A stretch of DNA of 64,000 bases, taken from Escherichia phage EC.P1. Both the position numbers and the translations under genes were made by a program. Of the stretch, positions 31,836-34,649 are shown piece by piece. The notes below the pieces were generated by a model. The model did no database searches and was not told the DNA's origin. It saw only the letters and a list, made by a program, of their open reading frames with translations. The number at the start of each line of letters is the position of its first letter. Positions within the stretch are counted from its first letter, which is position 1. Location: sequence record PQ657772.1. The stretch is one strand, 5' to 3'.

Positions 31836-33245
31836 TTAGCTACGTTGACGCTTTTTGTCAGCTTCATATTCGTAGTGTACAGTTTCGCCAAATGGTGCTT
31901 GTTTGTTAGGATTACTGTGGATAACAAACAGTGTCTTACAGTAATCAGGATCACCCCATGACTGCCACGGCTCACCATCTGTAAACATAATAAGCTGTTT
32001 AGGCTTATAGTTGTCATGCTTCATATGAACCCATACTGCTTCAAAGTCAGTACCACCACCACCTTTCACTGGATATTCGAGAATCTTACTCTCTTCACCA
32101 GTTTTGTAATCTTTCACAGTATAAACTTCAGTATCGAACGTCATGATACGGATTTTAAATTGTTTAAACTGCTTAGTGATACCCAGTACTTCACTGATGA
32201 AATCACGGAGCATATCTTCAGAGATAGAACCGGATGCATCTAGTGCAATTGCAATATCAATATCATCATCTGGTTTCATACCAGGGAAGATTGGATTCCC
32301 GTAGAATGAACCAGAACTACCAAAACCAGCACCCCATGAACGACGATTAGGATTTTGATAAGTTGCATCAGACTTCAACCAGCTACGCAGTGTGCGGTGA
32401 AGTTTAGAACGCCAGTCGATCTTTGGTTCTTTGAAGTTGTTAATCATACGTGCGATTTCAGCAGGAGTACCACCTGCACGAGCAGCATTCATCATTGCTG
32501 TTTTGAAATCATCCATATAATCACGTTTTTGTTTATCACTTGAACCACCTTCTTGACCTTCTTGTGGAACGTCATGCTGGTCGATTGTTGTACCTTTGCC
32601 TTTACCATCTTTGATATCACCAAAAGTACCGCGTGATTTACCTTCACCCTCACCACTACCAGCCTGTGGATTTCCTTCACCTTCTCCGTCTTGATCCTGC
32701 TTATCTTCTTCTTCGAGAATGTTATAAATCTCTTCAGCAGTCATACCATCGTACTTTTTATCGTACAGCCATTGGCTTTGGATTTTACCAATTTTATCAC
32801 GAACAAGAATCTGGTTAATTGCATAGTCAGCAGCACGGTTATAACGCTGCGGGTCACGCATACCACGACGCAAGAAGTGGTCATATGCACAGTGAAGAAT
32901 TTCATGACAGATAACTGCAATCAGGTTTTCATCGGTCAAACCTTCTGTCATTTCTTTAAGTTGTTCTTCAGTTACTTCAGGATGTTTCTCACGAATTGCT
33001 TCTTCGTATGCTGACTTTTTGGATTGGTCCTGAATACCCATGATGAATTCTACGTTGTAGAATAAATGCTTACCATCTACAGCCAAAGTACGACACCATG
33101 TGTTGTTTGCAACTGGACGCAGACGAGAAGCCAGTACACCAAAGAATGGGAATGTTAGCATTAAAGATGTGCGAGCTAAGATCAGACGATCTTGACATTC
33201 TTTCTGGAGAGCCGGAGTAACATCACTGAAACGTTTATCTGACAT
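31836..33245 (-). CDS. VWA-domain protein with N-terminal zincin-like HExxH motif (DUF2201-like)
   Basis: HEILHCAYDH metallopeptidase-like motif; Gly/Glu-rich linker; C-terminal MIDAS motif in IALDASGSIS; GAGGAAA RBS. Confidence 0.7.
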   Translation of the reverse strand: MSDKRFSDVTPALQKECQDRLILARTSLMLTFPFFGVLASRLRPVANNTWCRTLAVDGKHLFYNVEFIMGIQDQSKKSAYEEAIREKHPEVTEEQLKEMTEGLTDENLIAVICHEILHCAYDHFLRRGMRDPQRYNRAADYAINQILVRDKIGKIQSQWLYDKKYDGMTAEEIYNILEEEDKQDQDGEGEGNPQAGSGEGEGKSRGTFGDIKDGKGKGTTIDQHDVPQEGQEGGSSDKQKRDYMDDFKTAMMNAARAGGTPAEIARMINNFKEPKIDWRSKLHRTLRSWLKSDATYQNPNRRSWGAGFGSSGSFYGNPIFPGMKPDDDIDIAIALDASGSISEDMLRDFISEVLGITKQFKQFKIRIMTFDTEVYTVKDYKTGEESKILEYPVKGGGGTDFEAVWVHMKHDNYKPKQLIMFTDGEPWQSWGDPDYCKTLFVIHSNPNKQAPFGETVHYEYEADKKRQRS

Positions 33246-33261
33246 TTGTATTTCCTCGTTT

Positions 33262-33300
33262 AGTTAAGATAAAAGAAGGATACCATGTGGTATCCTCCTT
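33262..33300 (-). terminator. hairpin with T-run between AAA+ and VWA genes (attenuator or partial terminator)
   Basis: Palindrome GGATACCA..TGGTATCC extended to about 12 bp; followed on minus strand by TTCTTTTATCTT; TTGACA hexamer just upstream. Confidence 0.45.
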
Positions 33301-33320
33301 GTCAACACTCTTTTTAATTA

Positions 33321-34649
33321 TTAACCAAGAGAGCGTGCTTTACGTACTAGGTCAGAGTACTTCATAACGAAGTCTTTAAACGCTGGTACATCTTTAATCG
33401 TAATCGCTACTTTATGAAGCGTGATGGTACGAATCGCCAGTACTGCCAGTTCTGCTTGAGTTGCAGAGAAGTTATGGTCTAGGAAGGTGATGAAGTTGTT
33501 GCACAGCTTACCCCAATCTTCCACTGGTAGACGTTGTTCTTGCTTCTCATTGTAGAGGTCGATAATTTTGTAAACCAGATTCAGAGTGATGAAGTAGTTC
33601 GCGGAAATATCAAGCGAAGCATCAATCTCTTTAATCTCACCCTGTAGGATGGACATGGTATCTGGTAGTTTAGCTACGTTATCAACATACTCGATGTATT
33701 CAGTTGCTACGCCTTCACCAACACGACCTGCAATCATCGCACGGAACACTTCTTTATCAATGTTCTTAACTTTCTTCAGATCTTCGTAGCGTGCTACTGC
33801 TTCCCATGAACGTGGAGAAGTACCACCACAGTGAGAAGGATCTTGTGGGCTAAGGGTGTTGAAGTGTTTAGCACCAGTGTTGTTGATGAACGCTACAGTT
33901 GCTGGGTTCAAACGCTTACCAATCGCATAATCGTTAATCCAATCTTGATGATAAGGAATCATTTCGATGTGGGTCATACGGTCACGCAGTGGTGTAGCTA
34001 GAGAGAACGTTACACCGCCATCAGTTTCACGGTTACCTGCTGCGAGAATCAGTGCAGTCTTAGGTAGCTTCATCTCACCAACACAACGGTCGAGGATTAG
34101 CTGATAAGACGCTGCCTGTACAATCGGCATTGCAGAGTTGATTTCGTCAAACAGAATAACACCTTTCCAATCTGGAGACAGTTTCAGTACTTTAGGTGCT
34201 GCCCACACAACTGCTGTTTCAGCGATGTAATCTTGTGCACTAGCCAGTTCAGATTCAATCAGTTGCTTACCATCCATATCAAGGAACACTTTCTCTGGAA
34301 CTGGGATACCGCGAAGGTCACTTGGTTCAATCTGAGACAAACGGAAATCGATAAAGTTAGTGTCTTGGTCGATTAGTTTGGCTTCAAACGCTGCCAGTTC
34401 ACGGCGAAGTTGATCAGCATTTTCAGTATCAGCTTCGATTTGTTGTTTCATGAACTCAATTTTTGCCACGTTATCTTTACGCAGTGGGTAGTTCTCATCA
34501 GCGTATTGACGTGCGATAGCAGATTTACCGATACCAGGGCTACCCCAAATCATCAGGCTATCTTGAATCATGTCAGCCAGTGCCATTGCTTCTTTAGCTT
34601 TCTTAGGAGTCAGTTTTACGTTCAGGATATCGTTGTTTTGAGTAGACAT
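33321..34649 (-). CDS. AAA+ ATPase (MoxR/CbbQ-like)
   Basis: Walker A GSPGIGKS, Walker B ILFDEIN, sensor AAGN; paired with the downstream VWA gene; preceded by a long 5' UTR and two tandem consensus promoters. Confidence 0.75.
   Translation of the reverse strand: MSTQNNDILNVKLTPKKAKEAMALADMIQDSLMIWGSPGIGKSAIARQYADENYPLRKDNVAKIEFMKQQIEADTENADQLRRELAAFEAKLIDQDTNFIDFRLSQIEPSDLRGIPVPEKVFLDMDGKQLIESELASAQDYIAETAVVWAAPKVLKLSPDWKGVILFDEINSAMPIVQAASYQLILDRCVGEMKLPKTALILAAGNRETDGGVTFSLATPLRDRMTHIEMIPYHQDWINDYAIGKRLNPATVAFINNTGAKHFNTLSPQDPSHCGGTSPRSWEAVARYEDLKKVKNIDKEVFRAMIAGRVGEGVATEYIEYVDNVAKLPDTMSILQGEIKEIDASLDISANYFITLNLVYKIIDLYNEKQEQRLPVEDWGKLCNNFITFLDHNFSATQAELAVLAIRTITLHKVAITIKDVPAFKDFVMKYSDLVRKARSLG

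Follow-up and report, generated by a model that had tools for sequence, protein, structure and literature searches.

Relationship to described ATPase-VWA pairs

Helix-2-insert AAA+ ATPase rings with an adjacent partner that carries a von Willebrand factor A (VWA) domain and its metal ion-dependent adhesion site (MIDAS) are represented by CbbQ-CbbO, NorQ-NorD, RavA-ViaA, and BchI-BchD, and pairs of related architecture have been reported from viruses. One such pair is encoded by Escherichia phage EC.P1 (PQ657772.1), of which a stretch of 64,000 nucleotides (nt), hereafter the window, was analyzed; all coordinates are positions in this window. The pair consists of an AAA+ ATPase of the MoxR type and a DUF2201-type protein that joins a zincin-like N-terminal domain to a C-terminal VWA domain (hereafter the VWA-zincin protein), equivalent to g308 and g309 of the jumbo coliphage fEgEco12 (PP777464), and makes up an operon of its own, with two genes, in a jumbo coliphage of the RaK2/121Q-like group. 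Promoter context, comparative genomics, and published data on distant homologues point to pre-late expression and to a non-morphogenetic role, most likely in counter-defense, although for this reading as a whole we consider confidence and doubt to be about evenly balanced.

The closest well-known relatives are gp24 and gp25 of coliphage N4, which are homologous over most of both window proteins (E = 1e-26 and 1e-32, respectively). Together with their Schitoviridae orthologues, they have the same gene order and the same HExxH and MIDAS architecture. The N4 proteins are shorter, lacking the coiled-coil insert of the window ATPase and the insert at amino acids (aa) 70–105 of the peptidase domain. 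A paper on a roseophage from 2009 listed N4 gp24/gp25 as "AAA ATPase" and "vWFA" with unknown function, and the phAPEC6 record annotates the orthologues of the window pair as "MoxR ATPase" and "N4 gp25-like". The N4 genes are located upstream of the genes for dCTP deaminase, gp30, rIIA/B, helicase, and polymerase. More generally, a middle/replication block houses the homologues of N4, LUZ7, and the roseophage, next to genes for dCTP/dCMP deaminase, thymidylate synthase, rII, helicase, and polymerase. According to the introduction of the LUZ7 study, N4-like middle genes are transcribed by phage RNA polymerase II. The N4 pair is in a middle-gene region and not behind sigma-70 promoters, whereas the window pair lies behind promoters of the sigma-70 type.

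Among jumbo phages, the account of "group 2.2" in Iyer et al. (2021; Viruses 13:63) presents a MoxR-vWA pair with an N-terminal metallopeptidase fusion and proposes roles in virion assembly and proteolytic processing, with p618/p892 of Acidianus two-tailed virus (ATV) as the precedent. The architecture and the type of phage are the same as those of the window pair; promoters, a leader hairpin, and an internal terminator are not part of its description. Because N4 gp24/gp25 are homologous and Iyer et al. (2021) described such a pair, the cassette is already known. The novelty implied by an earlier note on this DNA was therefore overrated, and what is new is the detail on the regulatory leader and on the conservation of the flanking genes. 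A literature search on DUF2201 in phages returned nothing relevant.

ATV p618 (MoxR) and p892 (VWA), the precedent cited by Iyer et al. (2021), form a viral MoxR-VWA pair like that of the window but belong to an archaeal virus, have no peptidase domain, and are tied to extracellular tail growth. The ternary systems of Kaur et al. (2020) use a MoxR-vWA couple as an ATP-dependent conflict switch in multicellular bacteria; however, these serve cellular defense and combine variable effectors with a third core component (VMAP, iSTAND, FtsH, or beta-propeller); none of these was found at the present locus. A known defense system was also rejected as an identity for the locus, as no ternary third component was found among the neighbors, which belong to PHROGs of unknown function, and no match was obtained with PADLOC, which models defense genes and not anti-defense genes. 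CbbQ-CbbO, NorQ-NorD, RavA-ViaA, and BchI-BchD-type proteins are the best structural matches to the pair, but they have no zincin domain, activate metalloenzymes, and show no family-level sequence match. The earlier note had named CobS/CobT identity among the findings that would speak against its view. This identity, as well as that of any other chelatase, was rejected because NCBIfam has no family for either protein, Mg_chelatase scored 16.3 bits against a cut-off of 20.3, and no CobT model was hit. Searches of the PDB by sequence or profile found no related structure for either protein.

The pair is widespread. The VWA-zincin protein was found by tblastn in at least 724 phage records, which span RaK2/121Q-like and PA5oct-like jumbo phages, Atu_ph07, Bacillus phage G, V5-like Vequintavirinae, phages of about 145 kb, and N4-like Schitoviridae. 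Over 2,700 homologues are present in a large protein collection. When 80 IMG/VR loci were retrieved with an ATPase profile, the VWA-zincin gene was present downstream of the ATPase gene on the same strand in 77, and the other three were cut by the contig end. Since both myoviruses and podoviruses carry the pair, it is not tied to one virion type.

Sequence features of the two proteins

The window is 100% identical to fEgEco12 between positions 31500 and 35000. The match to the 121Q/PBECO4/phAPEC6 group (genus Asteriusvirus according to the phAPEC6 record) is about 87%, and relatives from Klebsiella, Salmonella, Pectobacterium, and Erwinia match at lower identity. Both open reading frames reported in the earlier note were found where it had placed them, on the minus strand, and every motif that it quoted (GSPGIGKS, HEILHCAYDH, DASGS, and the Gly/Glu-rich linker) is present in the translations. 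One correction concerns position: the operon reads right to left in window coordinates, so the promoters are located at coordinates above 34649.

The ATPase matches phrog_1297 (E = 3e-105) and has its Walker A motif, GSPGIGKS, at aa 36–43 (nt 34544..34521). Among 38 homologues, the Walker A and B residues (G36–S43 and D168–E169), AAGNR 203–207, R224, and R280 are invariant, and a DxRLSQxxPxDLRGIP motif is likewise invariant in the homologue alignment. Matches to the generic Pfam AAA models are weak (AAA is at threshold, with 21.5 bits versus a cut-off of 21.2), and the scores for the MoxR-type models AAA_3 and AAA_5 are below the gathering score (17.9 versus 27 bits for AAA_3). The link to the MoxR models is transitive, because homologues at 31–34% identity carry AAA_5, AAA_3, and bpMoxR. 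By structure search, the fold is nearest to the MoxR, dynein, midasin, and McrB modules. In the jumbo-phage clade, the ATPase has a coiled-coil insert (aa 57–91) after the Walker A helix and ends in a C-terminal helical domain. Judged from its sequence, the protein is a divergent MoxR-type AAA+ ATPase of the helix-2-insert clade.

The VWA-zincin protein has the motif HEILHCAYDH starting at aa 114 (HExxH at nt 32906..32892), a Gly/Glu-rich linker at about aa 185–235, and the MIDAS motif DASGS (DxSxS) at aa 336–340 (nt 32240..32226). Two Pfam models, PF13203 and PF09967, define the DUF2201-type family as used here. The protein matches both DUF2201_N ("putative metallopeptidase"; E = 3e-36, 125.8 bits versus a cut-off of 23.2) and DUF2201 ("VWA-like"; E = 1e-21, 77.8 bits versus a cut-off of 26.4). 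The profile hidden Markov model search that the earlier note had proposed thus bore out the domain assignments of this protein, with both models above their cut-offs, but not the direct assignment of the ATPase to AAA_3 or AAA_5. In an alignment of 38 homologues with identities down to about 37–45%, H114, E115, H118, D140, and N144 are invariant, and so is the complete MIDAS (D336, S338, S340, T399, and D423) of the VWA fold. The linkers, rich in Gly, Glu, and Asp, vary in sequence and length across the same homologues and are disordered and acidic/Gly in character. The N-terminal domain is a putative zincin-like metallopeptidase, in which D140 is a candidate third ligand of the zinc site. The label "HNH endonuclease", which is attached to this family in PHROG 1314 and in many GenBank records (including fEgEco12 and the RefSeq entry of N4 gp25), was rejected; as no HNH domain is detectable, the label is a propagated mis-annotation.

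Promoters and timing of expression

Two consensus sigma-70 promoters, P1 and P2, precede the operon at a spacing of 92 nt (Table 1). Only three sites in the window match the consensus at 12 of 12 positions, and P1 and P2 are two of them. The region as a whole contains 23 promoter-like sites, compared with 12.1 ± 3.2 in shuffled sequences. Both promoters are retained in phAPEC6/121Q (11/12 for the P1 copy and 12/12 for the P2 copy). Because the P1 and P2 regions are alike and the Klebsiella relatives RCIP0023 and RaK2 have a single copy (12/12), P1 and P2 probably arose by duplication. The palindrome between them, TCACAAGATGTGA, is a possible operator, and CACAAGATGTGAG is kept in phAPEC6/121Q. 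The weak promoter-like site P3 is not conserved beyond the Escherichia/Klebsiella lineage among the relatives compared.

The relatives use other promoter sequences at this position. In Salmonella phage Munch, the operon promoter is GGGACA-17-TATAAT with TG, and in Serratia phage BF, GAP32, and the loci L014 and L095, the −35 element is TGAAAC(G/A), combined with TGnTATAAT or TATACT. A promoter with a −35 element of this GGGACA/TGAAAC(G/A) type and an extended −10 element (TGnTATAAT) also precedes g310, the first gene after the operon, in the window itself. This class may be an activator-dependent middle class. The paper on phage CBB treats the TGAAAC(G/A)-type promoters as a divergent RpoD-like class that mostly precedes DNA-synthesis genes. 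In the same paper, consensus promoters with UP elements are assigned chiefly to the region presumed to be early, and structural genes are preceded by ATAAATA motifs. The promoter tables of the CBB paper list none for the ATPase gene. The earlier note had predicted very early and strong expression of the pair. The two consensus host-type sites agree with this prediction, but the early promoter class is confined to the Escherichia/Klebsiella lineage; since the Serratia, Cronobacter, and related phages use the TGAAAC(G/A) −35 element, "very early" does not apply to the whole family.

The distribution of late motifs is informative for timing. An (N)TAAATA motif is present 34–67 nt upstream of nine structural genes near the operon (including those for the sheath and tube, g302–g305, g314, and g316). 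At this distance, no such motif was found before the ATPase, VWA-zincin, g310–g312, and thymidylate synthase genes. Because the motif is missing at its usual distance, unlike in the neighboring structural genes, the operon is considered pre-late. Within approximately 29300–46000 of the window (corresponding to 9800–26700 of locus L001), these genes mark a pre-late island between the late structural operons. The early genes named in the PA5oct paper are only the terminal-repeat genes and gp450, and the cappable-seq study of LUZ7 makes no statement on gp37–gp39.

Functional evidence and possible roles of the pair

The sole functional data for the family come from homologues in the Vequintavirus Bas54 (MaxBurger), which was studied in the HIDEN-SEQ preprint (bioRxiv 10.1101/2025.11.20.689424). 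The homologues are bas54_0063, a MoxR ATPase, and bas54_0055, a "putative metallopeptidase". Full-length homology to the window proteins was found for their counterparts in a sister phage, bas51_0063 and bas51_0055 (E = 8e-33 and 4e-54), and the DNA of bas54_0063 is 99% identical to that of bas51_0063. In the transposon sequencing experiments of the preprint, both Bas54 genes were classified as "non-essential" on Escherichia coli K-12, with insertions at 60 of the 64 and 81 of the 86 TA sites of bas54_0063 and bas54_0055, respectively. On the clinical isolate CFE311, which carries the defense system DS-28, the values dropped from 148.7 to 0 for bas54_0063 (log2 fold change −7.23) and from 219.7 to 47.2 for bas54_0055 (log2 fold change −2.20, adjusted p = 0.009). 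These values are from supplementary file 9, sheet "resampling_K-12_vs_CFE303"; the command line and file names in this sheet give CFE311, and the command line is taken as correct. Furthermore, the authors state that knockouts of bas54_0063 and of the small gene bas54_0140 show specific sensitivity to DS-28, a system of two genes that was cloned (bioRxiv 10.1101/2025.11.20.689424). The family members of Bas54 are therefore dispensable on K-12 and conditionally required on a strain that carries DS-28, which argues against an essential role in assembly and for counter-defense.

The earlier note had preferred host takeover or anti-defense over morphogenesis. This preference is supported by the sigma-70-type promoters, the lack of a late motif, the replication-block context in N4, and the Bas54 data; its weaker side is that function is read from homologues and that the promoters of relatives differ. 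Several points weigh against a counter-defense role. Support for anti-defense comes from one preprint on distant homologues, with only 24–29% identity between the Bas54 and window proteins, and the two Bas54 genes are separated by about 4 kb and encoded on opposite strands, whereas the window genes form one operon. The phenotype of bas54_0055 is much weaker than that of bas54_0063, and bas54_0140, which is needed as well, has no homologue in the 64-kb window. For DS-28, the literature gives the two-gene composition only, with no further composition or trigger. The pair also looks core-like: vertical inheritance and fixed synteny are seen across at least 724 genomes, a pattern that is not usual for anti-defense genes. 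On the protein side, structure searches with the VWA-zincin protein returned matches to the VWA domain only and none to the N-terminal domain, so the peptidase assignment is based on Pfam and the invariant HExxH. The TGAAAC(G/A) promoters of the relatives, the PADLOC result, and the detection of the ATPase in virion preparations (see below) belong to the same side of the balance.

One alternative is that the pair acts as a virion-assembly chaperone and processing protease that folds or assembles structural proteins of the large, fiber-rich virion, with the zincin domain trimming virion proteins. This has been proposed for the MoxR-vWA-metallopeptidase pair of the group 2.2 jumbo phages in the account of Iyer et al. 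(2021), and in RaK2-like phages, the operon is located directly downstream of virion structural genes. Moreover, the ATPase was detected by mass spectrometry (MS) in purified phAPEC6 virions (gp265c, 6 peptides, 19% coverage), and the PA5oct record gives it the "ESI-MS/MS" note that is also given to structural proteins. However, topoisomerase, RecA, SSB, ThyA, and RNase H also appear in these MS lists, which makes it likely that the ATPase signal is carry-over of an abundant protein; the VWA partner was never detected in virion MS, and neither protein was flagged in the CBB virion proteome. The dispensability of both Bas54 homologues for plaque formation on K-12 and the lack of the late promoter motif that marks the adjacent structural genes also argue against this explanation. 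In addition, the N4-like homologues lie within a replication block, the conserved neighbors in distant loci are non-structural, and the family spans phages with differing virion morphologies. Overall, an assembly role seems improbable.

A second alternative is that the pair matures or activates an enzyme with which the phage metabolizes nucleotides or DNA, by inserting a metal cofactor or releasing an inhibited enzyme in the manner of NorQD, CbbQO, or CobST. The recurrent location of the pair near genes for thymidylate synthase and dCTP/dCMP deaminase (RaK2-like phages, N4, and the roseophage), the presence of an RNase H/FEN-like gene upstream in 46 environmental loci, and the promoter class that the relatives share with DNA-synthesis genes are all consistent with such a role. 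However, the linkage to ThyA could be inherited synteny, and the known cofactor-insertion systems have no invariant HExxH domain. Neither Pfam nor NCBIfam gave a match to the CobS/CobT, NorQ/D, or CbbQ/O families, and the Bas54 genes are needed only on one clinical isolate and not on K-12. The probability of this explanation is therefore regarded as small.

The third alternative, that of a general host-takeover protease, would involve early remodeling or degradation of host transcription, nucleoid, or envelope factors, with host-dependent phenotypes as an indirect consequence. The strong host-type promoters of the operon fit this explanation, the genes are core-like and conserved, and the VWA gene of Vequintaviruses adjoins an annotated anti-sigma factor gene. 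The remaining 12/12 promoter of the window, about 40 nt upstream of its target, drives a g327-like gene for a ClpA/ClpB-like double-ring Hsp100 protein (Pfam AAA_2, 3e-49; AAA, 3e-29; ClpB_D2-small, 1e-21), which suggests an early proteostasis program. Against this, the knockout of the MoxR gene in Bas54 was linked to a single cloned two-gene system, DS-28, with K-12 as the otherwise permissive host, which argues for a specific counter-defense effect and makes general takeover an unlikely explanation. As a separate observation, all three consensus promoters of the window precede genes for AAA+ protein-remodeling ATPases.

Leader hairpin, intergenic hairpin, and terminator

The earlier note had described a structured 5′ untranslated region and an internal hairpin; both are real and are conserved within the clade. 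The leader hairpin lies downstream of P1 and P2, 67 nt before the ATG of the ATPase gene, and folds with a minimum free energy of −17.8 kcal/mol (z = −3.4). A hairpin followed by a T-run is present at the same leader position in ten lineages, 31–79 nt before the ATG and, where a promoter was identified, downstream of the predicted promoter; the ATPases of these lineages have identities down to 48%. In an alignment of nine distinct leader sequences, 92.6% of the cells are paired, with compensatory changes in five of the nine pairs. This degree of pairing was not equaled in any of 500 shuffles, and slid registers gave 22–53% paired cells. The alignment was registered by hand and trimmed in the loops, the lengths of which vary, and thus leans toward the structure. 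Given the small sample and an alignment made to fit the structure, the covariation is supportive and not conclusive.

The regulatory leader appears to be undescribed so far, and an Rfam search with the leader and intergenic hairpins returned no family. The leader element may act as an attenuator, form the 3′ end of an sRNA (small RNA) of about 105–195 nt, or serve as a terminator that is also used by the late genes upstream. In most lineages, an A[CT]GGA[TA] motif is present just 5′ and 3′ of the leader hairpin (34700–34775 of the window, minus strand). Examples are L009, L012, L013, L014, L015, L096, and phage BF (TTTATGGATTAAT ... CAAATGGATTTGT). This motif may serve for protein binding or for processing.

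The intergenic hairpin (z = −4.3) overlaps a TTGACA-17-TATCCT promoter-like site. GC-rich hairpins with a T-run and unrelated stems occupy the same gap in 121Q, RaK2, Munch, BF, and GAP32, and that of Munch is annotated as a terminator in its record. Among the 46 distinct gaps tested, 18 have such a hairpin, including those of the five phages listed above, and many other loci have gaps of 16 nt. Downstream of the VWA-zincin gene, the operon terminator (z = −5.1) has counterparts in four relatives, and the gene that follows it has a promoter of its own, as described above.

Table 1. Positions of the operon, its regulatory elements, and associated genes in the 64,000-nt window.
Feature	Position	Strand	Description
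g307-like gene	35343..34966	minus	125 aa; phrog_15638, function unknown; upstream neighbor
Promoter P1	34940..34913	minus	TTGACA-16 nt-TATAAT, TG extended −10, A-rich upstream tract; 12/12; predicted start ~34906
13-nt palindrome TCACAAGATGTGA	34874..34886		Between P1 and P2; sequence read directly
Promoter P2	34848..34821	minus	TTGACA-16 nt-TATAAT with TG, A-rich upstream tract; 12/12; predicted start ~34814
Leader hairpin and ACUUUUG	34758..34709	minus	Hairpin 34758..34716; arms AAAGGAACTG / CAGTTCCTTT, inner 7-bp stem
Weak promoter-like site P3	34718..34690	minus	TTTACT-17-TATAAT; 10/12; overlaps leader U-tract
MoxR-type AAA+ ATPase gene (fEgEco12 g308)	34649..33321	minus	442 aa
Intergenic hairpin	33300..33263	minus	Stem-loop 33300..33273; 12-bp stem, ACAU loop, UUAUCUU tail; terminator-like
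DUF2201-type VWA-zincin gene (fEgEco12 g309)	33245..31836	minus	469 aa
Operon terminator	31823..31792	minus	Hairpin 31823..31802; 9-bp GC-rich stem, 4-nt loop, UACUUUUUUC tail
Promoter before g310	31788..31761	minus	GGGACA/TGAAAC(G/A)-type −35, extended −10
g310-like gene	31726..31496	minus	phrog_13789, function unknown; downstream neighbor
g311-like gene	31493..30840	minus	phrog_15894, function unknown; downstream neighbor
Third 12/12 promoter	5503-5530	minus	Upstream of the g327-like gene
ClpA/ClpB-like double-ring Hsp100 gene (fEgEco12 g327)	3176-5464	minus	762 aa

Gene neighborhood

The genes that flank the pair are conserved over long distances. The g307 family adjoins the ATPase gene in 71 of the 80 IMG/VR loci, and the g310 and g311 families are each found in 60 of these loci; all three are also present in PA5oct. 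They are kept in environmental loci with an ATPase of about 30% identity, as well as in PA5oct despite rearrangement, whereas in Vequintavirus and LUZ7, no member of the three families was detected close to the pair. The pattern suggests a larger conserved module to which g307, g310, g311, and the pair may belong. The label "transcriptional regulator HdfR" on g307 has no Pfam support. Between the g311-like and thymidylate synthase genes, there is a DUF2493/SLOG-like gene (30238-30834, minus strand; phrog_768, "DprA-like", with a weak Pfam match to YAcAr), and the same gene order is found in related jumbo phages.

Possible mechanism and implications

If the pair has a counter-defense role, its action may be envisaged as follows. 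The host RNA polymerase would transcribe the operon in the pre-late phase from the two very strong promoters, the leader hairpin would attenuate the initiated transcripts, and the internal terminator would make the ATPase more abundant than its VWA partner. Such an excess would fit a 6:1 complex as well as the MS pattern. If CbbQ-CbbO, NorQ-NorD, and midasin are taken as models, a hexameric ring of the ATPase is predicted, onto which the VWA partner would dock. The MIDAS site of the partner may then capture an acidic residue of the target protein, ATP hydrolysis would pull on or remodel this target, and the zincin domain, tethered by the long disordered linkers, would cleave it. The target is predicted to be cytoplasmic and dispensable for building virions. 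In this way, the pair would inactivate a host immune protein or its trigger, which matches the behavior of the Vequintavirus homologue toward DS-28. A stronger version of this model, which we regard as possible but doubtful, is that the operon encodes the first AAA+-powered, MIDAS-guided phage protease that dismantles a DS-28-like immune complex, with the conserved leader setting its dose, either as an attenuator or as the 3′ end of an abundant sRNA that is transcribed from P1 and P2. Under this version, the products of g307, g310, and g311 may belong to the machine as adaptors or regulators.

The pair is among the most widespread modules without an assigned function in large virulent phages (N4-like, V5-like, and RaK2-like), many of which are candidates for phage therapy. 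The mapped promoters, the covarying leader hairpin, and the internal terminator provide concrete experimental handles for its study. If the pair is an ATP-driven counter-defense protease, it would help to explain the host range of these phages and would represent a new mechanistic class of phage anti-immunity.

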